Shown: positions 2,403-41,511 of the stretch, piece after piece
Position numbering within the stretch: the first letter of the stretch is position 1
How the letters are laid out: every line of letters begins with the position of its first letter
Source: Candidatus Omnitrophota bacterium
GTDB lineage: Bacteria > Omnitrophota > Gorgyraeia > 1-14-0-20-64-10
NCBI GenBank assembly: GCA_030651065.1
Contig: JAUSCU010000077.1
Span: 13,362-77,361 of the forward strand
Length of the DNA: 64,000 nucleotides
Direction: 5' to 3'
Notes under the pieces: model-generated
The model's input: the letters and a program-made list of their open reading frames with translations, nothing else
What the model was told of the DNA's origin: nothing
Databases searched by the model: none
Made by a program: the position numbers and the translations under genes

Positions 2403-3283
2403 TACATGTACCCTTCGCGGCGCAGGGTCTCGAGCCCGCCGCCGTCTTCCTTATCCTGCGCGCGGCCGGAGCGCTCGGCGATGTTGCGGAACTTTCCGGT
2501 CTTAAGCTCCTCGATGATCTCCTTCACATTCTTGGCGGTGGATTTGACCGGGAAGGTGCAGGGGTAGCAGCCGAGCGACCGGTAACGCTCTCCCTTGCCT
2601 TGGTCGAAATAGAGCGGCACCACCGGGATCTTCTCCTTCTCGATGTACTCCCAGATGTCCAGCTCGGTCCAGTCGAGCAGCGGGTGGACGCGGATGTGGG
2701 TGCCGGGCGCGAAGTCGGTCTTGAACTGGTTCCAGAGTTCCGGCGGCTGATCCCCCACCTCCCAGTTGCTCTCCTTGTCCCGAGGCGAAAAGTAGCGCTC
2801 CTTCGAGCGGCTCCCTTCCTCGTCCGCTCGGGCGCCGACGATCACCCCGGTGTAGGGCTCTTTGTTTGTGTCCGGCACGTACTTACCCGTCGCGTGGTCC
2901 ATCCGGTAGCGGGGCCACTTGCCCGACAGGGTGTTCACCAAAGCATCGGTTTTTAAGGTCTTGCAGCACTCCACGCGGGTGAGTTTCCCTGCCGGGAAGG
3001 TCCGTCCCTCCTGGAGCGCCTGCTCGTTCCGGCCGGTGATCATGTTCAGCTTCCAATCGAGGGCCAGCTTGTCGCGGTATCGGATCATCTCCGGAATCTT
3101 GAAGTCGGTGTCGATATGGACGAGCGGGAACGGCACGTGGCCGAAGAAGGCCTTGCGGGCGAGCCAGAGCATGACGGTACTGTCCTTGCCGATGGACCAG
3201 AGCATGGCCAGGTTCCTGAAGTGGTGGTGAGCCTCCCTCAGGATGTAAACCGATTGGCTTTCTATCTTTTCGAGATGTGTCAT
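2402..3283 (-). CDS. cysD: Sulfate adenylyltransferase subunit 2 CysD (PAPS-reductase-like fold)
   Basis: [18 protein letters not shown]...[17 protein letters not shown] aligns with the E. coli CysD N-terminus (LTHLRQLEAESIHIIRE...SIGKDSSVML). I chose the internal ATG at 3283 rather than the ORF-track start at 3376. The CysD stop overlaps the cysN start. Confidence 0.85.
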
Positions 3284-3296
3284 CGCGAAAAAGGGG

Positions 3297-3749
3297 CTAT
3301 TCGGAAGCCTTCTTTTTGATCCAAGAAGCGCCGGCCTCTTCCAGCGCCGAGCGGATCGAATTGGGAAGAGCTTCAAGGGCCAGGTTCAGCTCCGCCGTCT
3401 GACCCGGCTCCACCGTGAAAAAGAGCTTTTCCGGCTGGAGCCCGCCCTTGCTCACTTGCAGCGAGTAGTTCCCCGGCTCAAGGCCTTTCTTTGAGTAGCC
3501 GCCGTCGGCACCGGTCTCCGAGGTGGCGATGATGCCGCCCTGCACCTTGGAAATCTGGACCCAGGCCTGCGGGACCGCCCGGCCGTCCGCCCGGACTTGG
3601 ATGGAGACGGCGCCGGGGCCCTGTGGGGAAAAAAAGATCTTCTTGGCGTTGTAAGCCCCCACCGCCAGCGTGACGACCCCCACTGCGATACCGAGGATCA
3701 GCTGGATCTTTTTCAACATCAGGTCATGCTTGCTTTCATCTGCGCCCAT
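3297..3749 (-). CDS. Membrane-anchored protein with a carboxypeptidase-regulatory-like (CarbopepD_reg) beta-sandwich
   Basis: The protein has an N-terminal TM helix ([17 protein letters not shown]). The motif [14 protein letters not shown]...[15 protein letters not shown] resembles CarbopepD_reg_2. Confidence 0.4.
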
Positions 3750-3781
3750 TCAAATTCTCCACTTTTCTTTATTATAGCAGG

Positions 3782-5743
3782 CTACTCGTACCTCAGCGCT
3801 TCGATCGGGTTCAAGGCGGCGGCTTTCCGAGCCGGCCAAAAACCGAACAGCACGCCGACCGCGCAGGAGAAGAAAAAGGAGAGCGCGACGGCGCTTAAAG
3901 AGACCTGGGCGGCCCACCCGGCCCACTGGGACATCCCCAGCGTGATGAGCCATCCGAGCGCGATGCCGATCACGCCTCCGGCCACGCTCACCACTACCGC
4001 CTCCACCAGGAACTGGCCGAGGATGTCCCGGCGGCGGGCGCCGATCGCTTTGCGCAGGCCGATCTCTCGTGTCCGCTCGGTCACGGAAACCAACATGATG
4101 TTCATGATGCCGATACCGCCCACCAGCAGGGAGATCACCGCGATGGAGGCCAGCAGCAATGTCATCGTCCGGTTAGTTTCCGACAGCGCCGCCTGGATCT
4201 CGGCCATGTTCCGGATCTCAAACGCCCCCTTTCGGGAGGCGGGGATCCGGTGGCGGCGGCGCATCAGATCCTGCACGGAATCCTCCACCGCGCTCATCCC
4301 CTCGGCCTCCTCCACCTCGATGGAAATGTCGTCCACGTGCTCTTTTCCCAGCAGGCGGCGCATCGCGGTGCCGATCGGGACGACCACCACGTCGTCCTGG
4401 TCCCGCCAGCCGGTGGCCCCCTTGGCCGGAAGGACGCCGATGACCTGGAAGCTGGAGCGGTTGATCTTGATCGTCTCGCCGACCGGATTGGCGTCGCCGA
4501 ACAGCTCCCTGGAGACCGTCTGTCCGACCAGCACCACGCGGGAGCGGCGGCGCGACTCCTCCGCGTCGAAGAACCGGCCGGCCACGGGGGTGGCGCCCCT
4601 CACCGAAGCGTAATCGGGCGTCACTCCCTCAATGCGGGTGTTCCAGTTCCGGTTGCCGTAGACCACCTGCCCCCGTCCGTCCACCGAAGGGGCCACCCGG
4701 CGGATGCCGGGCAAGGCGGCGACGGCCTCCGCGTCGGCCAGCGTCATCCGCGTGACCACGCCGCTCTCGAGCGCCACCCGGCCGGCCTGGCGGGCCCCGG
4801 GCCGGAGCATTAAGAGGTTGGAACCGAGCGAGGCCAGTCTCGCCTCAATCGAGGCGCTGGCCCCGCTACCCAGGGCCAGCATCGCGATGACCGCGGCCAC
4901 GCCGATCAGGATCCCCAGGGTCGAAAGCCCGGTCCGAACCTTGTTGGCCAGCAGCGCCCGGACCGCCTGCCGGAAATGGTCGGAGATCTCCCGAAGAAAG
5001 AAACCGGTACCGTTTCCGGCAGTACCGGGTTGCTCTCCGGAACCCGGCACGTTTGGAAATGGTACCGCATTGGACGTGTCTGATTCGATCCTGCCGTCCC
5101 TCATCCGGATGATCCGCCGCGCCCGGTCGGCCACCTCCTGCTCGTGCGTCACCAGGATCACCGTGATCCCCTGCCGGTTCAGCCCCGAGAGGATCTCCAG
5201 GATTTCGTGGGAGCTGGCGGAATCGAGATTGCCGGTCGGCTCGTCCGCGAAGATCACCCGGGGCCGGTTGACCAGCGCCCGAGCGATCGCCACCCGCTGC
5301 TGTTGGCCGCCCGACAGCTGGGCGGGGGTGTGGCCCATCCGGGCTTTCAAACCCACCTGCTCCAGCAGTTCCAGAGGGCGGGAGGGAGCGCTGCCATTAT
5401 GGAGGCCGGGAGCATACAACAGCGGCAGGCGGGTGTTTTCCAGCGCGGACATGCGGGGAAGAAGATTGAACTGCTGGAAGACGAACCCGATCGTCCGGGC
5501 CCTTAAAGCGGCCAACTCATCCTCCGAAAGCCCGCGGATCTCCCGGCCGGAGAGCCGGTAGGAACCGGCGTCGGGTACGTCGAGCAAGCCCAGCACGTGC
5601 ATCAGGGTGGATTTACCCGAACCGGAGGGACCCATGATCGCCACGAAATCCCCCTGTTCGACGGTCAGCGAAACATCCTGGAGCGCCTGCACCTCCACCT
5701 CCCCCATCCGGTAAACCTTGCGGAGGTTGGAGGTCTGTATCAT
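3782..5743 (-). CDS. macB: MacB-type ABC transporter, with the ATPase and FtsX-like permease fused
   Basis: The ATPase part shows GPSGSGKST as Walker A and LSGGQQQRVAIARAL as the ABC signature. A C-terminal FtsX-like permease with 4 TM helices follows, and the length is 653 aa. The start overlaps the macA stop as ATGA. Confidence 0.85.
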   Translation of the reverse strand: MIQTSNLRKVYRMGEVEVQALQDVSLTVEQGDFVAIMGPSGSGKSTLMHVLGLLDVPDAGSYRLSGREIRGLSEDELAALRARTIGFVFQQFNLLPRMSALENTRLPLLYAPGLHNGSAPSRPLELLEQVGLKARMGHTPAQLSGGQQQRVAIARALVNRPRVIFADEPTGNLDSASSHEILEILSGLNRQGITVILVTHEQEVADRARRIIRMRDGRIESDTSNAVPFPNVPGSGEQPGTAGNGTGFFLREISDHFRQAVRALLANKVRTGLSTLGILIGVAAVIAMLALGSGASASIEARLASLGSNLLMLRPGARQAGRVALESGVVTRMTLADAEAVAALPGIRRVAPSVDGRGQVVYGNRNWNTRIEGVTPDYASVRGATPVAGRFFDAEESRRRSRVVLVGQTVSRELFGDANPVGETIKINRSSFQVIGVLPAKGATGWRDQDDVVVVPIGTAMRRLLGKEHVDDISIEVEEAEGMSAVEDSVQDLMRRRHRIPASRKGAFEIRNMAEIQAALSETNRTMTLLLASIAVISLLVGGIGIMNIMLVSVTERTREIGLRKAIGARRRDILGQFLVEAVVVSVAGGVIGIALGWLITLGMSQWAGWAAQVSLSAVALSFFFSCAVGVLFGFWPARKAAALNPIEALRYE

Positions 5744-13988: not shown

Positions 13989-14064
13989 TCCCCGGTAGCT
14001 CAGTCGGTAGAGCGGCTGACTGTTAATCAGCATGTCCCAGGTTCGAGTCCTGGCCGGGGAGCCA
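13989..14064 (+). tRNA. tRNA-Asn (anticodon GTT)
   Basis: The acceptor stem is TCCCCGG/CCGGGGA. The D-arm is AGCTCAGTCGGTAGAGC. The anticodon loop is CTGTTAA, with GTT at 14022-14024. The T-arm is GGTTCGAGTCC. G is the discriminator, and CCA is encoded. Confidence 0.9.
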
Positions 14065-15555
14065 ATTTGGACGAAGAAGCCCTTCGGCGAGTATGCCGAA
14101 GGGCTTTCTATATGTAGGGACTACGGTTGCGTCAACGAGGGTGTAGTTCGAGGCCACGAACTTGAGGATGGAGGCCTTGCCTTCGTACTTGGATTTAAGG
14201 TATTGCGGGTATAGGCGGTTAGAGAGTTCGAGGGTTCTAGAGGCGTTCTCGTACCAGTTCGGGTTTACCTTCCCCAGGCCGTTCAGGATGGCCTTGATTT
14301 CCGCGATAGTTGCCCTGTATTCGCCTTCTTTGGCCTTAAACGCCTCTTCATCTAACTCCCTGTCCAAACGGGCGTCATAGAGGCGGGAGAGCCGTTGGCT
14401 TGCCCGTTCCAGTTCTTTTTGCAGAGAGGCGACACGGTTCTCGCGTAGATCCTGGCTCTTGGCGTCGGCTTCCCGCAGGGCATCTTTCAGCCAGTCCACC
14501 GTCCCAGCGTCCAACGTTACCGCCTTGACCGCCGGCTCGAAGAGATGGGCGATTCGGTTCTCAGGGACGTAACCCCAGCCGTCATGCCTCCCCTTTGAAA
14601 ACGTGCAGTGGTAGTAAACAAACCGCTTCTTCTTGATCTCCCCCAGAACCTTGCACCCGCATTTCCCGCAGACAACGAGGTTGTTGAAGGCGAACCCGAG
14701 CCGACTCGCGTGAGGACGCGCCTTGCCATGTAAAGCGGCGTGTGCGTTATCGAAAAGGTCTTTGGTGATGAGGGGGGTATGACTTCCGCTTCGCACCTGT
14801 CCCTGCCAACGGAACACCCCGTAATAAATAGGGTTTTTCAAGAGCCATTCAATCCCGCTTTTTCCAACGCGACGACCTTTCTTGCCCCGAAAACCCTCCT
14901 GGTAAAGCATCTTGGCGATAGTTGCCAAAGAATAGGAGCCGGAGGCCATTAATTGAAACGCTCTGCGGATAAAAGGAGCGCGGTCTTCGTCTACTTCGAT
15001 CAGGTGGGTAATTCGGTTGTTCCTGTAGCCAAGTGGGGCAACAGAAGGGTATAGCCCTTGTTCGGCTTTCTCCATCATCCCCATCTTTGTTTTTCGGGAG
15101 ATGTCGTTCGACATCTTCTTGGCAACCGCAACTTCGATGTCGAACATGAACTCGTCTTCCGAGCCAGAGTTTCGGTCAATGATCTTTCCGGTCCGTGAGA
15201 AATGGATGGTCTTTCCAAAGTCCTTAATGAGGGTGCAGATTTTCAGCTTGTCGAAGTCGTTGCGGGTCATGCGGTCGGTTACGTCAAAGATGATGTGCTT
15301 AACTTCGTCATGCCGTTTGGCGTACTCGACAAGCTGATTGAAAGCGGCGCGTTCGCTTCGCCAAGCCGATTCCGAGACCTTCCAACTTCGGACTATAGAG
15401 AGGTTCTTCCGCTGGGCGTAATCCAGCCCTAACTTTTCCTGGGCATCCAGGGAATAACCTTCTTCTTGGGCGGTGCTTGAAACGCGAACATACAGGACGG
15501 CTTTGGGCGAGCCGTGGTAGCCGTTTGCGGAGGGCTGTGGTTGTTTCCTTGTCAT
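14023..15555 (-). CDS. Large serine recombinase (resolvase-type catalytic domain + recombinase domain + zinc ribbon)
   Basis: AVLYVRVSSTAQ contains the catalytic Ser in the resolvase N-terminal domain. The protein is 510 aa, with a recombinase domain and a C-terminal Cys cluster (CGKCGCKV...HC). Its 3' end overlaps the tRNA-Asn 3' half. Confidence 0.85.
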   Translation of the reverse strand: MTRKQPQPSANGYHGSPKAVLYVRVSSTAQEEGYSLDAQEKLGLDYAQRKNLSIVRSWKVSESAWRSERAAFNQLVEYAKRHDEVKHIIFDVTDRMTRNDFDKLKICTLIKDFGKTIHFSRTGKIIDRNSGSEDEFMFDIEVAVAKKMSNDISRKTKMGMMEKAEQGLYPSVAPLGYRNNRITHLIEVDEDRAPFIRRAFQLMASGSYSLATIAKMLYQEGFRGKKGRRVGKSGIEWLLKNPIYYGVFRWQGQVRSGSHTPLITKDLFDNAHAALHGKARPHASRLGFAFNNLVVCGKCGCKVLGEIKKKRFVYYHCTFSKGRHDGWGYVPENRIAHLFEPAVKAVTLDAGTVDWLKDALREADAKSQDLRENRVASLQKELERASQRLSRLYDARLDRELDEEAFKAKEGEYRATIAEIKAILNGLGKVNPNWYENASRTLELSNRLYPQYLKSKYEGKASILKFVASNYTLVDATVVPTYRKPFGILAEGLLRPNWLPGQDSNLGHAD

Positions 15556-15604: not shown

Positions 15605-16693
15605 TCACTGTCCAGACTTCCTTCGATTGTGGTTTTTACAGAGCATCTGGCAATTTTCTTCGGAGGTTTTGCCATCCAAGTGCCAAGGCTTAATATGGTC
15701 AGCTTCCATTTCTTCAAGCTCCCAATGTTTTGTCTTTGGGCATTTCGAGCAGATGCCTTTCTGTTTTTCGTAAGCCTTTTGCTTCTGAGGATCGGTGAAC
15801 GCTCGAATGTTGAGATGCTTTTCCTCGTGTGTCAGAAGATATGGGTAAATCCCCTTCTTGTTCGTTACGTCGTCATCCGCAATCAGCTTCGCCGTCTCCG
15901 CCTCGATTTTTGCCGTGTTGAACTTTTTGTCTTTGAATTCGTTGTAGAGTGCGCCCCATGCGACGCCTTTCATGAATTTTCTTTTCTTCGTGAACGTTGC
16001 GCCAACCCACTCCATCACGTTCTGAAAATAACTCCACAGCGCCTTGGCATCGGCATCCTTTTGGTGCTTGCCCATGTAATCCTCAATCTTGCCACCAGAA
16101 GTCCAATCAATCACCGCTTCTAAATAATCCTGACGTATCGGGGAGCCGTCCATATAGTCCTGCCCGATTTGATACGCGGCGCAACCTGTCTTACTGAAAT
16201 ACCGTTTCGCGTCGGAAACCCATGAACCCGCATAGACGGCGTTTCGCAATTCCTGCTCCGTCAACTTTTCTCCCGCGATGTTGATTGTCCTGAACCAATC
16301 CAACCTCTCGCTGTCCGTGCCTGTGCATTGATAGACCATTAGCTTATAGTTGAGGATTTGCGCCTGCTTGTCGTCGGGCAGATTATGGAAATACAACTGC
16401 TGAAACGAGAAATTGCCCTTCACATACTGGCAAACGGAAATCGTCCGCTGTTGCCCGTCGATCACCTCAAAGTTGCCGTCCTCCCGCACCGCCCAATACA
16501 TTACGTTCAGCGGAAAAGCTTTCGTGACGGTGTTGATGACGGCGTCGCGCTGTTTGTCCTTGTAAATGAACTCCCGCTGATACGGCGGACGAATGTCGAG
16601 GTTACCGCCATAGCCGACAACCCCTTCGAGGCCTTTGTCCTCGTAGCCCTCCGCCAGTTCACGGACGGTTATTTCTTTGAGCGTGATTTGCAT
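15605..16693 (-). CDS. DUF262 (ParB/Srx-like, DGQQR motif) plus a C-terminal HNH endonuclease. The architecture is GmrSD/BrxU-like.
   Basis: FEVIDGQQRTISVCQY is the DUF262 signature. The C-terminus CSKCPK...ADHIKPWHLDGKTSEENCQMLCKNHNRRK is an HNH His-Me finger. The gene is AT-rich. Confidence 0.7.
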   Translation of the reverse strand: MQITLKEITVRELAEGYEDKGLEGVVGYGGNLDIRPPYQREFIYKDKQRDAVINTVTKAFPLNVMYWAVREDGNFEVIDGQQRTISVCQYVKGNFSFQQLYFHNLPDDKQAQILNYKLMVYQCTGTDSERLDWFRTINIAGEKLTEQELRNAVYAGSWVSDAKRYFSKTGCAAYQIGQDYMDGSPIRQDYLEAVIDWTSGGKIEDYMGKHQKDADAKALWSYFQNVMEWVGATFTKKRKFMKGVAWGALYNEFKDKKFNTAKIEAETAKLIADDDVTNKKGIYPYLLTHEEKHLNIRAFTDPQKQKAYEKQKGICSKCPKTKHWELEEMEADHIKPWHLDGKTSEENCQMLCKNHNRRKSGQ

Positions 16694-17703
16694 GTTGCCC
16701 TTTTCCGTTTGATAACGATGCGAACATAAGTTGGTTTGCCATTTATTGTCCCGTCATTATCCTTGATGAGGCCGTGTTCTTTGAATGGCGTGTTATCGTT
16801 CGTGCGAATGTCATTCGCGCTTATTATCTTAAATTGGTCAGGATTGTATTTATCCAAGAACGTAATCGGTACGCCCATCGCGCCGTCATAATCACATGGG
16901 ATTTCTGCGTATTTATCCACGTTTATGGCGTCGTAGTTATCGTATTTTGGATATTCTTTTCGGCTGTATTTCTTGTATAAGATTAAATCTTGGTGGCGTT
17001 TTGCAGTATCCAAATTGGTGAGCCACACAATCCTGCCGCTGCTAAAAAATTTTTGTCCGTTTTCAATTTTTACACGAGATTTGGTTGCGATGTCGTAATG
17101 GTCTTTCACTCCGAACCATTTTGTGCCGTAATTATCCATACCCAGCCATATTTTATTGTCTCTGATGAGCGTGAAAATTTCCTTGTACGTTGTGGCGTTC
17201 TGGTCGCCGATGATGACAAACTGTTTTCCGTATTTCACGAGTTGCGCTACATATTCCCTGAATAAAGAAAACGGGGGATTCGTGACCACGATGTCGGATT
17301 GTTTCAGCAGTTCGATAGATTCCTTGCTACGGAAATCACCGTCGCCTTGCAAATGTTTGAGTCCGATTCGTTCGGGGGTGGGAACCTTGCCGCCTTGTTT
17401 TTCGCCCGCGTATTCCAGATAGACGGCTTTCTCGGAATCGTTCTCGCTGAACAAATCGGCGTTCTGGTTTTTGTAGCAGGTGGTGATGAGTTTTTTCAGT
17501 CCCAGCTCCCCGAACTTATTGGAGAAATAATGGAAAAAATTGCTGACTTTTGGGTCGTCGCAGTTGCAGAGAACGACTTTGCCTTTGAAATGCTTTTTGT
17601 AATGGCTGAGTTCCTTTTCGATGTCGGTGAGTTGAGTGTAAAACTCATCATTTTTCGCTTGCCTTGCCTTGTGCAAATTTGTGTTTAGCGTCTTTTTTGA
17701 CAT
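16669..17703 (-). CDS. N6-adenine DNA methyltransferase (NPPF motif IV)
   Basis: VVTNPPFSLF is a (D/N)PP(F/Y) motif, and the N-terminal DEFYTQ region also fits. The gene overlaps the downstream nuclease gene by 25 nt and is AT-rich. Confidence 0.7.
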   Translation of the reverse strand: MSKKTLNTNLHKARQAKNDEFYTQLTDIEKELSHYKKHFKGKVVLCNCDDPKVSNFFHYFSNKFGELGLKKLITTCYKNQNADLFSENDSEKAVYLEYAGEKQGGKVPTPERIGLKHLQGDGDFRSKESIELLKQSDIVVTNPPFSLFREYVAQLVKYGKQFVIIGDQNATTYKEIFTLIRDNKIWLGMDNYGTKWFGVKDHYDIATKSRVKIENGQKFFSSGRIVWLTNLDTAKRHQDLILYKKYSRKEYPKYDNYDAINVDKYAEIPCDYDGAMGVPITFLDKYNPDQFKIISANDIRTNDNTPFKEHGLIKDNDGTINGKPTYVRIVIKRKRATCKSRSKK

Positions 17704-17708: not shown

Positions 17709-17927
17709 TCACCCCAAAAGCCGATCGTACTTGCGGCGCTCGGGCTTGCTGGAGATTAGCTTCTTGATTTGATACTCCTGGATTGGGCTGGGGCTAACGT
17801 GGCGCTTGAGCCAGCGGTTGACGGTGGTGAAGGCAACCCCTAGCTTCTTAGCGAGGATCTGCTGGGTGATCTTGTTTTCGAGGCGGTAATGTTCGAGGCG
17901 GTCTATCATGTCCATAGTGTTTAGCAT
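17709..17927 (-). CDS. Small HTH DNA-binding protein (Xis/XRE-like)
   Basis: I chose the internal start MLNTMDMIDRLEHYRLENKITQQILAKKLGVAFTTVNRWL. The sequence matches a helix-turn-helix pattern. The gene lies immediately downstream of the tyrosine integrase. Confidence 0.45.
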   Translation of the reverse strand: MLNTMDMIDRLEHYRLENKITQQILAKKLGVAFTTVNRWLKRHVSPSPIQEYQIKKLISSKPERRKYDRLLG

Positions 17928-17928: not shown

Positions 17929-19023
17929 TTATAGCACCTTATCTTTGAGGGCAAGCAAAACTTTGTCCAGCTTCTCGTCCAGCGTTGCCCTGGGGTTGCC
18001 AGCAAAGTCCATGCTCTTGATGATCTCTGTGAGCCGTGAGGGGGTGTAGTTGCCATAGGACGAAAGGGTAGTGGCGATATATTCGTGTCCGAAGTTTTGG
18101 CTTACGGCTTTCATTTCTTCCCCGTCTTTGCAGGAAGCGACTGCCAAATTGACTGCAAGGTGTCGGAAGGTGTGCGGGGGGAAGTAGGGCAGACTTGCCG
18201 CCTGGGAACGCTTCTTAAAAATCTCTCTGATTCTGCCCGTCCCTTGCCAGAAGGCAGGTTCCACATCGGACGATGCCTCGAAGCTGAGGTTGTCCGCGCC
18301 CTGATCTAGCTTGGACCGGGGAAAGAGGGGGTCTTGGGAGCCAAAGCCCTTCCCTTCCAGGTGTTTCACCCAACCCGTTAGGAATCCCACCATCTTTTGG
18401 TCAAATGGGAAAATGGTGGTGGGGATCAGCTTGGCGAACTTGGTTTCGACCCCTTTTCTCGGATTTTGGAGGATGGTCAACTTCTCTTTGTCGAAGCACC
18501 CAAGCGGCAAGGTGGCAACAGCTCGATCCCTCATCCCACTCAGAAGCGTGAATGAAATCAACGCTCTGTCCCGCAGATCAACCTCGGTCTTCGGCTCGAT
18601 GGAATCAACGAGCTTTCGGACGTAATCCAGAGAAGGGTAGTTGCGCGGGGTAGATTGGGTGGCAATCCGCTCTTCTTTCTCTGTGATCTTGAGGTAGTCC
18701 ACCGCATTGGGTTTGATTCTGCTTCTGTATCCCGTTTCCCGAACAAGCCAGCCGAAGAACTTCCGCAGGTACCTCATGTAGGCATGGTAGGTAACAATGG
18801 AAATCGGCTTGCCCCGAAACGCCCGTTTTGCCAACCACTTTTTGAAGTCAATTGCCTTATCGGAGTTGTAAAGGGCGAAGTCCTCATTCTTGGAGAACTC
18901 CTGCCAAAGCAATATGGCGTTCTCGATGTTGTTGACGGTCGAATCGCAACAGCCGGCCGCCTCTTTCAACCACCTAAAAAACGACCTCTTCACCCGCTCA
19001 TTTTTGGCGCTTACTTTTCGCAT
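17929..19023 (-). CDS. Tyrosine-type site-specific integrase
   Basis: A C-terminal catalytic region with HTFRHLAV...LSSYGNY (the conserved R, H-x-x-R and Y) is present, and the N-terminal SAM-like region contains RDRALISFTLLSGMR. The protein is 364 aa. Confidence 0.75.
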   Translation of the reverse strand: MRKVSAKNERVKRSFFRWLKEAAGCCDSTVNNIENAILLWQEFSKNEDFALYNSDKAIDFKKWLAKRAFRGKPISIVTYHAYMRYLRKFFGWLVRETGYRSRIKPNAVDYLKITEKEERIATQSTPRNYPSLDYVRKLVDSIEPKTEVDLRDRALISFTLLSGMRDRAVATLPLGCFDKEKLTILQNPRKGVETKFAKLIPTTIFPFDQKMVGFLTGWVKHLEGKGFGSQDPLFPRSKLDQGADNLSFEASSDVEPAFWQGTGRIREIFKKRSQAASLPYFPPHTFRHLAVNLAVASCKDGEEMKAVSQNFGHEYIATTLSSYGNYTPSRLTEIIKSMDFAGNPRATLDEKLDKVLLALKDKVL

Positions 19024-19531
19024 TTTCCCGTCCTTTCAAGATGTCAGTCTTCACGGAGCTAATCCCACTACCGTTTATTACTTCCAGGGGTTCCGTGAAA
19101 ATCAGACCGTTTTTCGTCCATTCCGCCGCCTTTCGGTCGGAGGAAAAGAGGAGAAGCGACTGGTCGCAGACTTCGCAGACGCCCCGGAGCAAGACCTGTT
19201 TGTGGGTTTTCCCAAGCCGCCGTTGGGTTGCCTGGGCGGCAAGTCGGTCGGGGCGGCTCCTGCGGGGTTCCCTGCACCTGGGGCAGTAAAACTCTCCGAT
19301 CTTGAGGGGCTTCTTTCGGCTCCGAAGCCGCGCTTTCAGGAAATCCCGAAGGTCTTGTCCCATGACCAGGAACGGCCTGGTGTGGTCTTCCAGGATTTTT
19401 AACCCCTCTTTGTGCCATACCTGAACCGTTCGGACGTGGGTTTCCAGCTTCTCGGCGATGTCCGCGAAGGAGTATGCCCGCTTTGCCTTGAGGAGCCGGC
19501 CGTTATGCGTCCGATTTTTTCTCGTCCGCAT
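18998..19531 (-). CDS. Hypothetical HTH plus Cys4 zinc-ribbon protein
   Basis: An HTH-like stretch (AYSFADIAEKLETHVRTVQVWHKEGL) and a zinc-ribbon-like stretch (CPRC...CEVC) are present. Confidence 0.4.
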   Translation of the reverse strand: MRTRKNRTHNGRLLKAKRAYSFADIAEKLETHVRTVQVWHKEGLKILEDHTRPFLVMGQDLRDFLKARLRSRKKPLKIGEFYCPRCREPRRSRPDRLAAQATQRRLGKTHKQVLLRGVCEVCDQSLLLFSSDRKAAEWTKNGLIFTEPLEVINGSGISSVKTDILKGRENAKSKRQK

Positions 19532-19790
19532 CTTCCCTATCCAGCTTGTCCAGGAGCCGAAAAAGCCCCGTCATGTTCTCGGCAATCTCCCGCGCATCCT
19601 CAAGTGTGAGGGGATAGGGATAGCGGGGTTGCCAGAACTTGATCGTCCGTTGAAGAAACTCTTCGCTAAACTCAGCCATAAGGTGTCGCGCAATGTCCTT
19701 TATGGCTAATGGAGAAAAATCACCAACGAGAGCCGATTTCTTGATGGCAAAACGGGGTTTTAGAGGGAGTGGCAGGGCAAAAAAAGTCGG

Positions 19791-19845
19791 CGAAAAATCA
19801 CCGAGGCCGGTGATAAATCACCCAAGCGGGTGAAAAATCACCGAG
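19791..19845. repeat. Three direct iteron-like repeats, spaced 20 bp apart
   Basis: The repeats are cgaaaaatcaccgag at 19791-19805, tgataaatcacccaag at 19811-19826 and tgaaaaatcaccgag at 19831-19845. Confidence 0.55.
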
Positions 19846-21013
19846 AATCGGATTCGGGCGTCAGGTTGATCTTGATGCGGTAGGAACTGTTCTCTTTGTA
19901 GGGGTAGAACGGGTCGCCTTTGATACCGAAACAGTCCCGCAGGGTTTTCGAGAGAAGCTGTTTCTTCTTTTTCAGGGTATCTCTCGCTTCGGAATCGTCC
20001 CAAGAGAACTCCCCGCCCCTCATGGCGAGGAGCTTTAAAAACTCCCATTGTTGGTTAGGCTTGCGGTTCCTGGCGTCCTCAAAGCCCATTTCCTTGTAGT
20101 GGGCGGTTACGGGTGTCTTGGTATCCTTGCCAGAGATTTTCACGTTATGGCCGTCCAAGAACTGAACGGTGAGGGCATCCCATTTCAAATGCTGGAACGG
20201 TTTGGAAGCATCCTTTTTCTGGGCTAGCGGGATAGGCTGGGGTTCTGAGGTATCGGCATCGAATTGGCTTTCTGGCAGTTTCAGAAGCTCGGCTTTGAAA
20301 AGATTGAACCGCTTGATGTCAATTTCAACGCGTATGTCCAGGACCATACCAAGATTGGAATGAGGAAACTCGAATCGGTCCACCACCCCTTTGTTTTTCA
20401 GGAACAAGAGGGCATATCGTCTGGCATCGTGGTTTTGGGTAGAACTGGCGGGAACCCACGTAATCCGAACTATCTGCGATGGATTAAGCTGGAATTTCTC
20501 ATCAATATCCAGGACGGCCTCACGCACTTTCTGTTTGTTTAGCGGAGTAAGGTCGGACAGCTTAATTCTGCGCCTGTGGAGAAGAATCTCCCGCCAGTTA
20601 TTGAACTCGGAGAACAAGATAAGCGTAATGGGGATGCTTTCGGGAAGCGGCGCGGGTCTATATGCCGGAACCGGTTTTCTTACTTCGGATATGCCCGTAT
20701 AGTTCGGAAAAACAAACGTATCCTCTCTTTCGTTGGGCGGAATGAGTTCTTTCCCATAATTCGTTTGGCTGATCGCAAATGCGTGTGCGCTCTGCTCGAC
20801 CATCGTTTCCAACACTACCAGCGTTTCATAGCGATAAAGCTTATCCAGTTGATTTTTTGGATTTGGGGTTAGCGCCACTTCGCCGGACGTGTTGTTTTCA
20901 GTAGCCGCTATGAGCGCGTCGCAGACAATAGCGAACTTTTCTTTTCCATCTAATGACGGCGTTTTCTTCTTATACCGAAAATCGCTTGGGTCTGGATGCG
21001 GGACTATAGGCAT
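19838..21013 (-). CDS. Hypothetical protein (391 aa, AT-rich, no domain I recognise)
   Basis: This is a long ORF transcribed divergently from the plus-strand defence operon. Its composition matches the island. Confidence 0.4.
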   Translation of the reverse strand: MPIVPHPDPSDFRYKKKTPSLDGKEKFAIVCDALIAATENNTSGEVALTPNPKNQLDKLYRYETLVVLETMVEQSAHAFAISQTNYGKELIPPNEREDTFVFPNYTGISEVRKPVPAYRPAPLPESIPITLILFSEFNNWREILLHRRRIKLSDLTPLNKQKVREAVLDIDEKFQLNPSQIVRITWVPASSTQNHDARRYALLFLKNKGVVDRFEFPHSNLGMVLDIRVEIDIKRFNLFKAELLKLPESQFDADTSEPQPIPLAQKKDASKPFQHLKWDALTVQFLDGHNVKISGKDTKTPVTAHYKEMGFEDARNRKPNQQWEFLKLLAMRGGEFSWDDSEARDTLKKKKQLLSKTLRDCFGIKGDPFYPYKENSSYRIKINLTPESDSR

Positions 21014-21098: not shown

Positions 21099-21890
21099 AT
21101 GACCCCAACGCCCCCATTCTCTGAACGACACGGCTATCAGCCCCAAGCTAAACCCATAACTATTTGGCACGAAGCCCCGCCATTTATGAGAGCAGCCATT
21201 TTGTCTGTTGCTGCTAAATCGGGGTTTCATCCAAATGGTTTACGATCCGTGATATGCGCTGTCCTAGATGAGATCCCGAATACGGGGCAAAATTGGAGTC
21301 CATCAAATGTCCTAGAGGAATGTGAAGGCCTGATTCATGGTTGCGAATGGTTCGAGGTTTATGACATTTGCGAAGCTCTAGCACGGGAAAGGCCATCCTA
21401 TGACGTTGAGCCTGGAGTTTTTGAGAAGAATTTGAACAATTTTTTCTTGAAAAAAGGCATCGGCTGGAAGATGGAGAACGGTTTGTTGTCAGTGCGCGGA
21501 GAGCAGGACTATGAAAAGGTAACCGCCGAAGCCATAGGCATTTTAGAGCAATCGGGGCGGTCAACTGCCCTGGGGGAACTTAGAGAAGCAATACGGGATT
21601 TGGCGAGGCGTCCAGAGCCAGACTTAACGGGTGCTGTTCAACATGCTATGGCCGCTCTCGAATGTCTTGCTAGGGATATGTGCGACTCCAAAAAGACCTT
21701 AGGTGATCTAATTAGAGAATTAGGGCTTCCAGCGCCCGTTGATGTAGCAGTCGAGAAAATGTGGGGTTTCGCCAGCAATCAAGGACGCCATGTTGCGGAA
21801 GGCAAGAAGCCGGAGCTTCCAGAAACCATGCTGACCGTCCATTTTTGTTCCGCGATAGTCTCGTACCTGTTGCAGAGAAAAACAGCGTAA
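21099..21890 (+). CDS. AbiJ-N-terminal-domain-like protein (possible Abi/HEPN-associated)
   Basis: The N-terminus MTPTPPFSERHGYQPQAKPITIW matches, from memory, the FS[EQ]RxGY start of AbiJ-NTD4-type proteins. I could not verify the C-terminal domain. Confidence 0.3.
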   Translation: MTPTPPFSERHGYQPQAKPITIWHEAPPFMRAAILSVAAKSGFHPNGLRSVICAVLDEIPNTGQNWSPSNVLEECEGLIHGCEWFEVYDICEALARERPSYDVEPGVFEKNLNNFFLKKGIGWKMENGLLSVRGEQDYEKVTAEAIGILEQSGRSTALGELREAIRDLARRPEPDLTGAVQHAMAALECLARDMCDSKKTLGDLIRELGLPAPVDVAVEKMWGFASNQGRHVAEGKKPELPETMLTVHFCSAIVSYLLQRKTA

Positions 21891-21936
21891 TAAGAAGATG
21901 GGGAACGGAGCAATCTAGCATTAGGCGGAGGTTGTC

Positions 21937-22635
21937 GTGAAAACATTACTCTGGGCGGTTGTGGTCATCGGCACGGTAGGTGCGCTCTTAGCCGGATTTA
22001 TACTCGTCCTTCTTAGATTGCGCGAAACAACCTTTGTGAGTGGGGAGTTTTTCAGGGAAACGATGGCTCAGATTATCGCGGGGTTGTTGATTGCCCTCAT
22101 TGCTTCTCTTGCCTCATTTTGGTCAGCCTATGGGTTATATAAGCTCCAGGAGAACGACAAGGTTGCTTCTTCGCAGGCAGATGCTTTCATAAAGATTAAA
22201 AACGAGGTCTCCGAAAATCGGTTAACTCTTGGACAAGAACTAAAACGAGAAAAACCTCTTGTTCGTAATCTTTTAAAAACAGAAGCTTGGGACGCGGGAA
22301 AGTATCAGACTCCAATAAAGACACCCTTGCTACTCGATGGGCTGAAACTCCTGTACGATTTAATCGAAAAATACAACTGGCACACTAATTTCCTTCGCTT
22401 CAAGGTCATGGAGCAAGGCTTGACCCAACAAGGCGTTCCCGAAACCGTCTGGAAATCTGATGCCGCAATAATGAAAGAAGTTTATTCAAAACTAGAGGAA
22501 TTTGAGAACCTCACGACGCGGGAGCTTATTTTGCTGGGTCACGGCTCTCAAAGTGAATTTGAGAAGAGATTCGGACCCTGGCAGGCGCAGGTTGATATTT
22601 CGTTTTTTAAACAGGCCGCCAAAGACGGCAAGTAG
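21937..22635 (+). CDS. Small membrane protein with two TM helices
   Basis: The first TM helix is LLWAVVVIGTVGALLAGFILVLL and the second is IIAGLLIALIASLASFWSAYGL. A soluble C-terminus of about 150 aa follows. A 3-bp gap separates it from the next gene. Confidence 0.5.
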   Translation: MKTLLWAVVVIGTVGALLAGFILVLLRLRETTFVSGEFFRETMAQIIAGLLIALIASLASFWSAYGLYKLQENDKVASSQADAFIKIKNEVSENRLTLGQELKREKPLVRNLLKTEAWDAGKYQTPIKTPLLLDGLKLLYDLIEKYNWHTNFLRFKVMEQGLTQQGVPETVWKSDAAIMKEVYSKLEEFENLTTRELILLGHGSQSEFEKRFGPWQAQVDISFFKQAAKDGK

Positions 22636-22638
22636 CTA

Positions 22639-23511
22639 ATGAACGAGCCGGCAGTAAGTTTCGATTGTTGTGTTGAGGGTTACCTCAACAATTTTCAATG
22701 TGACAATCCAAGCGTTTTTGAGGGTGCTCCGGGGGTTATGCTGTCCCCGTTAAGTGATGAGGAAAAAAGAGAACTCAAAAATATCTCGGCATTCCATTCC
22801 GGTTATTCATTTGCTGAATGGAAATTAGAAATAAGTTTGTCATCGGTAACTGGAATAGGCGAAGCTGATAATAAAGCAGAAGCAATAATCCAGGATGTCG
22901 TAACTTCGCTTAGATTAACCAAGTCGGGTGGAGTAGAGATCCGCACTTTGAGATTTAGATCGGATAACCTCCCTCCTAATATTTCATTCCTTAATAATTC
23001 GGGCGTAACCAATCCGCAACCGAGCTATAGAGAAGGTACGTATCAATGTTCCGGGTCGGATCTCGAACAAACCCGTAACATCTATAGAAAACTACAGCAA
23101 GCCGTTTCGAGCAGATTGCGGATAGGAATCGGCCGCTTCAACACCGCATACCTAGATTATCGTGATGAAGATAAGTTGATCGACAATATCACAGCTTTGG
23201 AAGCCCTTTTATTGCGAGAATCACAAGAGCTAAGTTTGAGGCTATCCCTGCGCTGTGCTTGTTTGCTTCGTAAAGGAGATGAGCGCAAAACGCTGTTTGA
23301 GTTCGTGAAAGAGGCTTACTCTTGGCGCAACAAGCTAATTCACGGGGGACAATATAATCTCCCGGACGAGCTTGTAGTAGGCCAAACCAAATTTAACAAG
23401 CATTCCTTCCTAGTATTTCTGCAACAAGTAGTTCGTGACTGCATAAAACTTTCTTTAATGAATTCGGAAATGGTCGATAAGAAAAATCTCGAAAATCTAA
23501 ATCCATTCTAG
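22639..23511 (+). CDS. HEPN-domain protein (Rx4H motif), Abi/Apea-like
   Basis: The C-terminal region ITALEALLLRE...LRLSLRCACLL...VKEAYSWRNKLIHGG contains the R-x4-H HEPN RNase signature. A 2-bp gap separates it from the SIR2 gene. Confidence 0.55.
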   Translation: MNEPAVSFDCCVEGYLNNFQCDNPSVFEGAPGVMLSPLSDEEKRELKNISAFHSGYSFAEWKLEISLSSVTGIGEADNKAEAIIQDVVTSLRLTKSGGVEIRTLRFRSDNLPPNISFLNNSGVTNPQPSYREGTYQCSGSDLEQTRNIYRKLQQAVSSRLRIGIGRFNTAYLDYRDEDKLIDNITALEALLLRESQELSLRLSLRCACLLRKGDERKTLFEFVKEAYSWRNKLIHGGQYNLPDELVVGQTKFNKHSFLVFLQQVVRDCIKLSLMNSEMVDKKNLENLNPF

Positions 23512-23513
23512 AA

Positions 23514-24557
23514 ATGAGTTCTCCTGATGAATTTAGCGTTACAAAAGAGCAGGAAATCCGCCAGTTGGCTATGTTGAGACCTCATGTGGTGATCGTCGGA
23601 GCCGGCGCCTCGGTCGCATCATTTCCGCGTGGCGACAGGAATGGTCGAATGCTTCCTGTGATGGATAACTTGGTAGAAGTATTACAGCTCCGAAATTTGT
23701 TTGAAAAACATGGCGTGAAGCATGAGGGAATCGGTTTTGAGACATTATATGCTGAGCTTTATGAGGACGAAAAACTTCGCCCATTATGCACGGGGCTGGA
23801 AGAGCGAATCTCAGAGTATTTTCAACAGGTAGAAATTGTCGACGATCCTACTATTTACGACCATTTAGTGCTTTCCCTTCGGAAAAAGGATGTCCTAGCT
23901 TCTTTTAATTGGGACCCTCTTTTGCTGCAGGCCTATTTGCGGGTCGGCCATAAAGGGTTTCATGTGCCGCGATTAATTTTCCTGCATGGCAATGTGGGAA
24001 TTGGTTTTTGTGAAAAAGACCGACAACTCGGAGTGAAGGGTCGCCTTTGTACTGAATGTAGAAAGAGCCTCGCGCCATCGAAATTGTTGTATCCGGTAAC
24101 TAAAAAAGATTACCAGTCAGACCCCATGATTAAAGGCCAATGGGACGAGTTATTGGCCGCCATGAAACGAGCTTTTATGATCACGATTTTTGGCTATTCT
24201 GCTCCTAAAACTGATGTTGGCGCGATCGATTTACTACTCAATGCATGGAAGGGGGAGCGCGAAAGAGAGCTAGAACAAGTTGAAATTATAGACATTAAAA
24301 CGGAAGAAGAACTTCGGCGGACGTGGGAACCATTCATTTTTTCTCACCATTACGAGACATTGACCGATTTCTATGAATCGTATCTAGCCCGACACCCCAG
24401 GAGAAGCGGGGAGGCGTACATGAATCAATTTATCGAAGGCAAATTCACGGAAGATAACCCACTGCCAAAGAGTGTCGGATTTGAAGAGCTAGAAAAGTGG
24501 GCGCAACCACTTCAACATCGAGAGACATTGGCTGGCTATTCTATGTTCTCTGGATAG
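23514..24557 (+). CDS. SIR2-like (SIR2_2 family) NAD-dependent protein, a candidate NADase effector
   Basis: VVIVGAGASVASFP is the SIR2_2 N-terminal Rossmann motif. FNWDPLL is the N-x-D motif containing the catalytic Asn. LHGNVG is the HG motif containing the catalytic His. A partial zinc module CEKD...CTEC is present. Confidence 0.7.
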   Translation: MSSPDEFSVTKEQEIRQLAMLRPHVVIVGAGASVASFPRGDRNGRMLPVMDNLVEVLQLRNLFEKHGVKHEGIGFETLYAELYEDEKLRPLCTGLEERISEYFQQVEIVDDPTIYDHLVLSLRKKDVLASFNWDPLLLQAYLRVGHKGFHVPRLIFLHGNVGIGFCEKDRQLGVKGRLCTECRKSLAPSKLLYPVTKKDYQSDPMIKGQWDELLAAMKRAFMITIFGYSAPKTDVGAIDLLLNAWKGERERELEQVEIIDIKTEEELRRTWEPFIFSHHYETLTDFYESYLARHPRRSGEAYMNQFIEGKFTEDNPLPKSVGFEELEKWAQPLQHRETLAGYSMFSG

Positions 24558-24626
24558 CTGATTTTATGATTCAATAGGGACATCTCTGCGACTGTTGGGA
24601 AGTGAGGATTGGTTTCAAGGATATTC

Positions 24627-24668
24627 CCGTACAGGAAGCAGTTGCGAAGTTCGTCCAGTACGGGGAGT
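24627..24668. repeat. 41-bp hairpin-containing repeat, copy A
   Basis: The sequence ccgtacaggaagcagttgcgaagttcgtccagtacggggagt has palindromic arms CCGTAC/GTACGG. It is about 108 bp upstream of the gene at 24776. Confidence 0.6.
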
Positions 24669-24775
24669 CTTCCTTTGTTCATTTTCCATTCAGACAGACG
24701 ACCCGGCCGGGGCGCCCTCTTTGGACGGGAAAGCCCTTCTAGGAGTATACTGAATCCAATTCAGGAGGTGACGCG

Positions 24776-25174
24776 ATGAAGAAGAGCTGGTTACAGGGGC
24801 TCACCCTGGCATTGGTTATTGTAGGAACGGTTTTCCTCTTCCGGGTTGGCGTGGGAATCTCAAGTGAGAAGGCACGTCTGCAGGACGACGCGTCCGTTGA
24901 AGGTTCCGTCGTTTCTCTCGATCAATCCTCTCCCATTCCGGTCCTCGATTTAAAGACAGCCGACGACAAGATCGTCAAGATAAACATCGACAGCGAAACC
25001 ACCGTTTTGCAGGATAACCAGGTCGGCTCGTTGGGCCAACTGGCTCCCGGCCAGCGCGTGAAGGTCCATTACGGGACCAAGAACGGAAAGCAGGTCACCA
25101 CCTCCGTTGTCATCATTTCGCCCCTTCTCAGTTTTCCACCTGCGAATGAGCAGCCCCATCCCCTTGGGGAGTAG
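24776..25174 (+). CDS. Secreted hypothetical protein with a beta-rich OB-like fold
   Basis: A signal/TM segment (LTLALVIVGTVFLF) is present, and the coding pattern is good. Confidence 0.4.
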   Translation: MKKSWLQGLTLALVIVGTVFLFRVGVGISSEKARLQDDASVEGSVVSLDQSSPIPVLDLKTADDKIVKINIDSETTVLQDNQVGSLGQLAPGQRVKVHYGTKNGKQVTTSVVIISPLLSFPPANEQPHPLGE

Positions 25175-25390: not shown

Positions 25391-25933
25391 ATGAGCGCAT
25401 TTGCCGATCGGATCGTTCGGGCCGCGAGGCTTGACCCGAGTTTGTACGAAGAAGTGGAGGCGGACCGGGCCGCTTTCCCCCAGGCTGCGGCAACGGTGGT
25501 TTTATCAAGCGTTGCAGCGGGATTGGGACTGCTTTGGCCTGGGGTAGGCCTGGAAGGGTTGTTTTGGGGCACTCTGGCGGCCCTCGTGGGATGGGTTGCC
25601 TGGGCGTGCGTGATCTGTTTTGTGGGGACTCAGCTACTCCCGGGATCTCAGACCTCCTCCAACATGGGGGAGGTGTTGCGGTGCGTTGGATTTGCCAGCG
25701 CCCCCGGTTTGATCCGCGTTCTGGGGGTGTTTGCGCCGATTCGGCCGGTTGTTTTCCTTGTCGTTTCGGTTTGGATGCTGGCCGCCACGATTGTGGCTGT
25801 CCGGCAGGCGCTTGATTATTCGAGCACGCTCAAGGCAGTTGTTGTCTGTCTCGTCGGATGGGTGATTCAAATCCTGGTACTCGTGGCCATCCTGCGGCTT
25901 AGCGGAGCGCCCTATCTGGTTGTAACTCCCTAG
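25391..25933 (+). CDS. Yip1-family membrane protein
   Basis: The N-terminal soluble segment is followed by about 5 TM helices, which matches the Yip1/DUF1282 pattern. Confidence 0.5.
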   Translation: MSAFADRIVRAARLDPSLYEEVEADRAAFPQAAATVVLSSVAAGLGLLWPGVGLEGLFWGTLAALVGWVAWACVICFVGTQLLPGSQTSSNMGEVLRCVGFASAPGLIRVLGVFAPIRPVVFLVVSVWMLAATIVAVRQALDYSSTLKAVVVCLVGWVIQILVLVAILRLSGAPYLVVTP

Positions 25934-25966
25934 CCCTGCCAGCATAGAGGATCAAAGACAGGTTTT

Positions 25967-26008
25967 CCGTACAGAAAGCAGTTGCGAAGTTCGTCCAGTA
26001 CGGGGAGT
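25967..26008. repeat. 41-bp hairpin-containing repeat, copy B
   Basis: The sequence ccgtacagaaagcagttgcgaagttcgtccagtacggggagt differs from copy A by 1 nt. It lies upstream of the LpxL-like gene. Confidence 0.6.
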
Positions 26009-26050
26009 TTTGGGGGGCGGAGGATGATCTCCTCCGCCCTTTTTCTTTAG

Positions 26051-33793: not shown

Positions 33794-33884
33794 ACGGAGA
33801 GGCAGGGATTTGAACCCTGGGACCCGCTTTTGGCAAGTCAGCTCATTAGCAGTGAGCTCCGTTCGACCGCTCCGGCACCTCTCC
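33794..33884 (-). tRNA. tRNA-Ser (anticodon GCT)
   Basis: The minus-strand sequence is ggagaggtgccggagcggtcgaacgg...ctcactGCTaatgag... It has a long variable arm and the T-arm GGTTCAAATCC. Confidence 0.85.
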
Positions 33885-33919
33885 TGAAAATGATTTTCTG
33901 AAAAAAAGAGGGATGAAAA

Positions 33920-33937
33920 CGCGCTCGGAGGGATTTG
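33920..33937 (-). repeat. Duplicate of the tRNA-Arg 3' end (18 nt), a putative att remnant
   Basis: cgcgctcggagggatttg is identical to 34082-34099, which is the 3' acceptor strand and part of the T-arm of tRNA-Arg. Confidence 0.55.
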
Positions 33938-34081
33938 GCGCCCTACGGCCGGCTTCGCCGGCCTACGGGTCGGCCAACCGCCGCTTCAGGGGAAGTCGGC
34001 CCTCCCTATTCGGTTGGGCCTCCCTAGACAAAAACAGTCGCGGCTCCCTTCAAATCCCTCTGAATAGATAAAGAATGAATT

Positions 34082-34155
34082 CGCGCTCGGAGGGATTTGA
34101 ACCCCCGACACCCAGGTCCGCAACCTGGTGCTCTATCCAGCTGAGCTACGAGCGC
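34082..34155 (-). tRNA. tRNA-Arg (anticodon GCG)
   Basis: The minus-strand sequence is gcgctcgtagctcagctggatagagcaccaggttGCGgacctgggtgtcgggggttcaaatccctccgagcgcg. Confidence 0.85.
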
Positions 34156-34208
34156 AACAAAGTTTTATTCTATCACGTAGATTGGGTTGGTGTAGATCCA
34201 GGGACGAG

Positions 34209-35675: not shown

Positions 35676-35726
35676 TACTGGACTGGAGATGTCGAGAATA
35701 ACGGAAATCTATTGTAGAATACCCAC

Positions 35727-38626: not shown

Positions 38627-38630
38627 AGTT

Positions 38631-39761: not shown

Positions 39762-39772
39762 AATGTAAATAA

Positions 39773-39861: not shown

Positions 39862-39920
39862 AAATAGAGCAAGGAGTAAGCAGTATAAGCCATTTGGGAG
39901 ATTCGGGGAAGCGAGCCGTC

Positions 39921-41510: not shown

Positions 41511-41511
41511 T

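Follow-up and report, generated by a model that had tools for sequence, protein, structure and literature searches.

We analysed a stretch of 64,000 nucleotides from a Candidatus Omnitrophota contig (hereafter the window), in which two overlapping genes encode an EcoRI-family N6-adenine DNA methyltransferase (MTase) and a nuclease that joins a DUF262 domain to an HNH domain. Among relatives of this pair the nuclease is well conserved, while two segments of the MTase, which we take as putative recognition modules, are exchanged as discrete units that no position of the nuclease follows. Such shuffling of two modules in an EcoRI-type MTase, beside a ParB-fold/HNH nuclease that stays invariant, does not appear to have been described before, and the best reading of the pair is that it is neither a classical Type IIP nor a Type IV system but one with Type III/IIG-like logic built from different parts. 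The initial annotation of the window had described a restriction-modification (R-M)-like module, which our results support, and had offered two explanations, a system of compact Type II kind and one that senses methylation; both of these miss the blindness of the nuclease to the swappable modules of the methylase.

The open reading frame (ORF) of the MTase (16669..17703, minus strand, 344 aa) lies upstream of that of the nuclease (15605..16693, minus strand, 362 aa), and they share 25 nt in different frames (16669..16693, minus strand; ATGCAAATCACGCTCAAAGAAATAA), so that the 3′ end of the first and the start of the second coincide in a manner that we read as translational coupling. The coordinates of both ORFs and of their overlap agree with those first annotated, and translation recovered all of the NPPF, DGQQR and HNH motifs claimed for them. 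The pair had also been called strongly AT-rich, which holds relative to the host only, as its GC content is 46.6% (43.0% in the MTase and 49.7% in the nuclease) compared with 62-63% for the flanking DNA. According to a protein search, an identical nuclease had already been recorded from a Candidatus Omnitrophota metagenome-assembled genome (MAG).

For comparison we used 80 loci carrying the closest relatives of the window nuclease in a scan of species-representative genomes, and the analyses of modules were carried out on the 73 loci in which MTase and nuclease are both full length. The nuclease was more conserved than the MTase in 92% of the locus pairs, with mean identities of 73% and 63%, respectively. 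The usual pattern in Type II systems is the reverse, the nuclease being less conserved than its MTase. Variation in the MTase was concentrated in two hypervariable segments, with mean identities of about 37% in segment A and 21% in segment B compared with about 69% in the core. In the window MTase the identity profile and the typing place segment A, putative recognition module 1, at aa 188-234 (17002..17142, minus strand) and segment B, putative recognition module 2, at aa 294-338 (16690..16824, minus strand). Clustering at 50% identity yielded 12 discrete types of segment A and 32 of segment B, and the window carries types A7 and B24, the latter being unique in the sample. Each type is conserved across distant taxa and phyla, and because of this conservation the two segments are, as far as sequences can tell, functional modules and not drifting loops. 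They are also freely combined, since 55 A/B combinations occur in the 73 loci and 13 of the 14 B types with several members pair with two or more A types.

The exchange can be followed at the DNA level. Some cassettes agree at 90-100% of positions over both genes, yet precisely at A and/or B the identity drops to 8-35% in blocks with sharp boundaries, and the flanks beyond these near-identical cassettes are unrelated. In one pair of loci (L054 and L056) the nucleases are 99.7% identical and the A segments 100%, with 27% identity in B; in a second (L023 and L075) the corresponding values are 94.7, 98 and 23%. Both segments differ in L033 and L044 (nuclease 97.2%, A 25%, B 12%) and in L043 and L073 (nuclease 95.0%, A 38%, B 23%). 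The three closest nuclease relatives of the window (82-84% identity) accompany three other module combinations, and in the closest of them, P0002, segment A is the same as in the window and segment B is unrelated and longer. When a DNA MTase carries, outside its catalytic half, discrete and conserved cassettes that are exchanged combinatorially, this is the signature of target recognition known from the S subunits of Type I, the Mod subunits of Type III and the Type IIG enzymes.

The nuclease does not respond to these exchanges. Its mean identity is 73.3% between loci sharing both module types and 73.2% between loci sharing neither, and in Mantel tests no region of the nuclease correlated with either MTase segment (r about 0). 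None of the 362 nuclease columns tracked the modules above the permutation threshold, while the positive controls within the MTase gave 36 and 22 such columns. At the level of whole proteins the co-divergence of MTase and nuclease was similarly low (Spearman 0.07), a value that we do not use as evidence alone given the narrow range of nuclease identities. A nuclease that is able to serve MTases with different putative recognition modules would not itself carry a matching specificity.

These results bear on the classical Type IIP alternative, in which the nuclease itself would recognise the fixed sequence of its MTase (GAATTC being the guess) and would be blocked by N6-methyladenine (m6A), DUF262 having only a dimerisation or regulatory role and the variable MTase segments being irrelevant to specificity. 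It would agree with the Type II label that PADLOC gives to both proteins, with the GAATTC that REBASE predicts for a homologue in Kangiella, with the 52% identity of the MTase to M.EcoRI and with the overlap of the M and R genes, which is common among Type II systems. However, near-identical nucleases stand beside MTases in which A and/or B have been replaced, with no nuclease position co-varying, and the conservation of the segment types across phyla marks them as functional modules. The greater conservation of the nuclease, the GAATTC methylation that was not detected in Kangiella (see below) and the fact that no sampled locus unites both EcoRI-type segments also speak against a Type IIP enzyme, which we regard as unlikely.

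Relationship to M.EcoRI and the recognition sequence

The MTase belongs to the M.EcoRI family of N6-adenine DNA MTases, matching the Pfam model EcoRI_methylase (PF13651) at 1.4e-135 over its full length (profile positions 1-345 of 345) and the PADLOC model MTase_II PDLC03297 at 3.4e-130 over aa 1-336 of 344. Its catalytic motif IV, NPPF, lies at aa 142-145 (17269..17280, minus strand) and is invariant in the alignment examined. A genuine M.EcoRI, encoded beside an annotated R.EcoRI on the E. coli plasmid pU90-3, is 52.4% identical to the window MTase and 49-60% identical to the MTases of the family, which average 63% among themselves. By sequence, the window MTase is thus a true M.EcoRI homologue, similar over the full length and sharing with M.EcoRI the NPPF motif and a histidine equivalent to H235. 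The likeness to the EcoRI system ends with the MTase, since R.EcoRI is a PD-(D/E)XK enzyme unrelated to the window nuclease and the gene order there is R followed by M, whereas it is M followed by R here.

Specificity within the family is demonstrably not fixed: GAATTC is the site of M.EcoRI, whereas the EcoRI-like M.MpnI has an asymmetric target, CTAT (PMC3536716). In M.EcoRI the mutation of H235 alters intercalation and base flipping and changes sequence discrimination at least 1000-fold (PMC2396439); the equivalent histidine is conserved in the family MTase, and segment A ends about 3 residues before it. The segments of M.EcoRI are of types A9 and B22 and those of the window MTase of types A7 and B24, and because of this difference GAATTC is probably not the sequence recognised in the window.

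Methylome data exist for Kangiella aquimarina DSM 16071, which carries an intact homologous pair. The MTase of this homologous pair (B158DRAFT_0961) has the REBASE name M.Kaq16071ORFDP, with a predicted GAATTC specificity that is similarity-based. Methylation of GAATTC was not detected in K. aquimarina by either PacBio or Oxford Nanopore (ONT) sequencing, and m6A without an assigned MTase was reported at CYGATG (100%, with 'no obvious candidate') and AGTACT (about 56%) (PMC4752239 supplement; Nanomotif preprint supplement). Predicted GAATTC MTases of Algoriphagus marincola and Bifidobacterium longum subsp. infantis, which may or may not belong to this pairing, are also listed as 'not detected' (PMC4752239 supplement), and A. 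marincola has several m6A motifs without an assigned MTase. Depletion of palindromes was uninformative in the 80 loci, as many 4- and 6-mers are depleted there and neither candidate is conspicuous among them (the observed/expected ratio was 0.77 for GAATTC and 0.68 for AGTACT). AGTACT is absent (0 copies) from the window, where 4 would be expected, but the deficit is not significant once multiple testing is taken into account.

Nuclease architecture and linkage to the methyltransferase

The nuclease has a DUF262 (ParB/Srx-fold)-helical-HNH layout, recovered with Pfam, PADLOC and AlphaFold2 (AF2), and matches the PADLOC model REase_II PDLC03418 at 8.1e-135 over aa 1-360 of 362. The profile search suggested in the initial annotation found the expected DUF262/GmrSD_N domain (PF03235, 1.2e-17) at aa 34-154 (16232..16594), and translation places the motifs PPYQREF at 16568..16588 and DGQQR at 16445..16459. 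It is followed by a middle domain (aa 146-310, 15764..16258) that is all-helical in the AF2 secondary structure and by an HNH zinc-finger nuclease domain (aa 315-360, 15614..15751; PF01844, 1.2e-8) with a CxxC...DH...N...CxxxC...N core, all on the minus strand. In an alignment of 94 sequences, Q39, R40, D79, G80, R83, N138, Q147, E148, C315 and N347 are invariant down to 37% identity, and Q81, Q82, C318, H333 and C352 are nearly so; as the residues of the nucleotide pocket and of the nuclease centre stay constant across the family in this way, both, judged from the alignment, are under selection.

An AF2 model built from this diverse alignment (predicted local distance difference test score, pLDDT, 93.4; predicted TM-score, pTM, 0.80) supersedes an earlier, poor one from a shallow alignment of 34 sequences (pLDDT 58.8). 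In this confident model an alpha/beta domain at the N-terminus and a beta-beta-alpha HNH at the C-terminus enclose the all-helical middle. Foldseek matched the N-terminal part with ParB/Noc CTPase domains, sulfiredoxin (Srx), BrxU and SspE, and the C-terminal part with Gme-HNH, McrA and Cas9-HNH, matches that are each weak (E>0.01) and coherent as a set. The alignments with ParB/Noc extend past the N-terminal domain, but with low TM-scores (0.2-0.4), and we claim no homology for the middle domain. Against the PDB, a profile of the family matched Gme HNH (4h9d, 8.8e-7) and weakly BrxU (7p9k, 1.8e-3), as well as the En domain of an intron maturase, the HNH of Cas9/IscB and McrA, whereas a sequence search against solved structures with either single protein gave nothing significant. 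NCBIfam had no match for either protein. The DUF262 region also matches the PADLOC models of Menshen NsnA (4.5e-26) and PD-T4-2_A (5e-12), the likeness being limited to aa 30-160; the partners and effectors of those systems differ.

The family of the nuclease is very large, with at least 8000 candidates in a search of 5.8 billion proteins, 496 clusters at 50% identity (E<=1e-30), mostly of full-length proteins of 360-420 aa, and at least 547 confirmed relatives in the scan of species-representative genomes. Hosts include Verrucomicrobiota, Planctomycetota, Bacteroidota, Proteobacteria, Firmicutes, Chloroflexi, the Candidate Phyla Radiation (CPR/Patescibacteria) and one archaeal MAG of Woesearchaeota. 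Of the 80 loci, 77 have an EcoRI-family MTase gene directly before the nuclease gene and in the same orientation, two of the three exceptions being contig ends. Where the junction between the genes could be read, 41 of 75 overlap (33 of them by 4 nt) and a further 29 are separated by 0-30 nt. The same pair in the same order is found on plasmids (40-67% identity), in the Flavobacterium phage laban6-1 and in two gut phage contigs. The two proteins are occasionally fused as MTase-DUF262(-HNH), in three separate clusters at 50% identity that include two distinct 688-aa sequences on separate contigs. What the window holds is a putative mobile R-M module from a widespread family and not a local oddity.

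The pairing with an MTase had been presented as an anomaly of this locus, a claim that does not survive the size of the family or the fact that databases already know the pairing, through the PADLOC models labelled Type II and the name given to a homologue in REBASE. A literature search found no paper characterising the family and returned only work on GmrSD, BrxU, SspE, Menshen and Dazbog; reviews of DUF262 systems likewise cover only these and PD-T4-2.

Some loci depart from the simple arrangement. In L053 a 61-aa remnant of a second nuclease N-terminus (3715-3900) lies just upstream of the MTase, and four loci (L007, L045, L068 and L011) have, between MTase and nuclease, an additional ORF (91-200 aa) that matches no family.

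The mycobacteriophages Marchy, Hami1 and Norz (PQ362668, PQ362672 and ON970624) carry an EcoRI-family MTase that is 59.6% identical to that of the window, and the same records contain no full-length match to the nuclease. These orphan copies plausibly serve as anti-restriction against actinobacterial versions of the system. The initial annotation had allowed that the window MTase might itself be an orphan phage Dam, never found with the nuclease elsewhere. We rejected that origin: orphan copies do exist in the mycobacteriophages, but the window MTase gene overlaps that of its nuclease, and nearly all of the loci examined show the two genes together.

Possible modes of restriction

With DUF262, ParB/Srx-like, in front of a His-Me nuclease, the protein has the architecture that the initial annotation had likened to GmrSD, BrxU and SspE, and in layout the resemblance is real: in GmrSD/BrxU enzymes, too, an N-terminal DUF262 of ParB/Srx fold that contains DGQQR is joined through a helical connector to a His-Me nuclease at the C-terminus. 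It nevertheless fails two defining features of that group. The His-Me nuclease is a canonical zinc-finger HNH (PF01844) and not the DUF1524 of GmrSD, BrxU and SspE (PF07510, with (E/D)HxxP), which Pfam did not find in the protein, and the nuclease does not stand alone. It is also shorter, at about 360 aa compared with about 580 aa, and is obligatorily linked to an MTase; dependence on modification is unlikely.

If the pair were nevertheless a Type IV nuclease of the GmrSD/BrxU kind with an accessory MTase, the methylation would be unrelated to targeting. The layout, the presence of BrxU and SspE among the fold matches and the one locus with a solitary nuclease (L009) could be taken in this sense. 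But such enzymes are stand-alone, whereas here an MTase is upstream in 77 of 80 loci, with translational coupling and natural fusions; the nuclease domain is PF01844 and not DUF1524; a nuclease that needed the m6A made by its own partner would be lethal to its own cell; and orphan MTases in phages fit protection, not sensitisation. We consider this the least probable of the alternatives discussed here.

The initial annotation had further assumed that such DUF262 nucleases do not normally come with a protective MTase, which overlooks SspABCD-SspE, where an effector with DUF262 and a His-Me nuclease is genetically tied to a system that marks the DNA of the host as self. The NTPase activity of SspE is stimulated by the phosphorothioate mark of the host, and the enzyme nicks phage DNA. 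By this precedent, DUF262 in our nuclease could read host m6A generically, with nucleoside triphosphate (NTP) hydrolysis keeping the HNH off, and unmarked DNA would be nicked or cut with no targeting by the MTase. A reader of m6A that is independent of context would also explain why the nuclease is blind to MTase specificity. Yet any adenine methylase, such as Dam, would satisfy a generic reader, which leaves the strict linkage to a single MTase family and the diversification of its modules unexplained; the M-R fusions suggest physical cooperation, and SspE itself reads its mark within a sequence context. The two systems differ in other respects, as the phosphorothioate is made by a four-protein machine and the predicted m6A by a single MTase, SspE has DUF1524 and extra domains, and the coupling here is tight, with gene overlap and occasional fusions. 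Overall, a generic reader of m6A seems improbable.

That the pair forms an R-M module based on protective methylation is, in our view, very probable; a role of the methylation in marking self is supported by the orphan MTases of phages (60% identity), which would be expected if they serve in anti-restriction. How the nuclease finds its target is a question on which we hold the preferred model, a nuclease directed by the MTase, to have about an even chance of being correct in full. In this model the MTase would mark host DNA with m6A at a site set by its two modules and thereby protect self, while the nuclease would have no matching sequence specificity of its own. An MTase bound at an unmethylated site would recruit or activate the nuclease, and the DUF262 NTPase, by analogy with BrxU, SspE and ParB clamps, might act as a nucleotide-gated switch or clamp that licenses cleavage by the HNH. 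The order of the genes, M followed by R, and their overlap would tie expression of the nuclease to that of the methylase. Somewhat more tentatively, the family could constitute an unrecognised class of NTP-dependent R-M systems, in which a sequence-blind ParB/Srx-fold NTPase-HNH protein is targeted by a monomeric, two-module M.EcoRI-type MTase. With the same reserve, such a class might be viewed as a functional counterpart of Type III Mod/Res assembled from unrelated components, with many, possibly asymmetric, reprogrammable specificities.

The parallel with Type III systems such as EcoP15I lies in the order of the genes, methylase then nuclease with an overlap, and in the sequence pattern, where specificity apparently resides in the methylase alone, the recognition region is exchanged and the NTPase-nuclease subunit is conserved. 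The parts are different: Res combines a PD-(D/E)XK nuclease with an ATPase of superfamily 2 helicase-like type, and Mod is a beta-class MTase whose target recognition domain is single and central, whereas here a ParB/Srx-fold NTPase with an HNH accompanies an EcoRI-family MTase with two variable segments, and PADLOC returned no Type III match for either protein. The Type IIG/IIC enzymes of the MmeI kind offer a second parallel, as here, too, one recognition module would serve both methylation and cleavage and as rare fusions join M and R in our family; in the window and most loci, however, there are two polypeptides, and the folds of nuclease and NTPase differ from those of Type IIG/IIC.

Several points weigh against an MTase-directed nuclease. 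Choosing the 80 closest relatives of a single nuclease narrows the range of nuclease identities, and over a wider range, as seen with the plasmid copies, MTase and nuclease diverge together. The helical middle domain could still bind DNA in a sequence-specific manner. We infer the role of A and B as specificity determinants from the cassette signature, the proximity to H235, the specificity that is not fixed in the family and the GAATTC result in Kangiella. The fusions are rare, with three clusters among the 150 best-listed representatives of the 496 clusters (E<=1e-30). In two loci the nuclease is intact and the MTase missing or broken. In L009, from an Ignavibacteria MAG (locus span 1-2780), no EcoRI-family MTase is present within 1.7 kb upstream, and Pfam recognised none of the ORFs there (209, 66 and 187 aa). 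No other of the 78 loci with enough sequence to tell has a solitary nuclease. In L040 (region 2412-6086) the MTase is split into fragments of 169 and 141 aa by an IS66 element (IS66-family transposase, 2918..4273, minus strand) and the nuclease ORF is intact (361 aa), though the insertion should be polar on nuclease expression.

If the methylase does direct the nuclease, the family would represent a fourth build of MTase-guided restriction enzyme beside Types I, III and IIG, and DUF262 would be at work beyond modification-dependent defence, perhaps as a nucleotide-gated clamp resembling that of ParB. The similarity-based GAATTC predictions for hundreds of REBASE entries would then probably be wrong. 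The family occurs on plasmids, phages and islands and from CPR to an archaeal MAG, yet it is present in databases only as putative Type II with GAATTC. A small monomeric two-module MTase for which nature provides single-module swap variants is a ready system to decipher and engineer m6A specificity, and the family could help to assign orphan motifs from methylome surveys.

The genomic island in the window

The pair sits in a low-GC island of about 12 kb (about 14.0-26.0 kb; 50% GC compared with 62-63%), and housekeeping genes resume at 26051. A tRNA-Asn(GTT) gene (13989..14064, plus strand; ARAGORN), as the GC profile also indicates, is the probable integration site and the left border of the island. 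It is overlapped by the last 14 or so codons of a large serine recombinase (14023..15555, minus strand; Resolvase, Recombinase and Zn_ribbon_recom domains) that adjoins the nuclease gene, just as initially annotated. The island was probably integrated at this tRNA; no long att repeat of the tRNA-Asn 3′ end was found at its far side, which is compatible with a serine recombinase.

On the other side of the pair, a gene for a 72-aa Cro/C1-type helix-turn-helix (HTH) protein, counted from an internal ATG (17709..17927, minus strand; PF01381, 1.1e-5; PHROG category transcription regulators), ends with its last codon 5 nt before the ATG of the MTase and starts right at the end of an integrase gene. 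It is possibly a regulator specific to this locus. A conserved controller (C) protein was considered and rejected, as the HTH has no homologue upstream of the MTase elsewhere and the ORFs in that position are heterogeneous. The integrase-like gene (17929..19023) has a weak Phage_integrase match (1.5e-5) below the Pfam cut-off, and a neighbouring gene (18998..19531) encodes 177 aa for which a sigma-70 region 4-like match, also weak, was obtained. These two genes separate the R-M pair from the rest of the island, which thus appears to hold two different recombinases, the tyrosine integrase-like gene accompanying the serine recombinase.

Farther along, three tandem repeats of about 20-22 nt (19784-19845; rough consensus AAGYSGGYGAWAAATCACCSAG), each with a short inverted repeat, span the last codons of a 391-aa ORF (19838..21013, minus strand) and the adjacent intergenic DNA, and might be an array of operators or iterons. 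The product of the gene at 21099..21890 (263 aa) includes an AbiJ N-terminal domain 4 (7.4e-18); PADLOC also matches it to the candidate system PDC-S32 (3.2e-22). After this AbiJ-like gene come three unannotated ORFs (21937..24557) with the lowest GC content of the island (43-45%), and the region 21099-24557 may be a second defence module. Near the right edge a 48-nt direct repeat, 94% identical between its copies (24624-24671 and 25964-26011), brackets two small ORFs (24776..25174 and 25391..25933) that have no database matches. Beyond the island, a tRNA cluster at 33795-43614 comprises Ser-GCT, Arg-GCG, Ser-GGA, Ser-CGA, Ser-TGA and Lys-TTT, with four tRNA-Ser genes within 8 kb.

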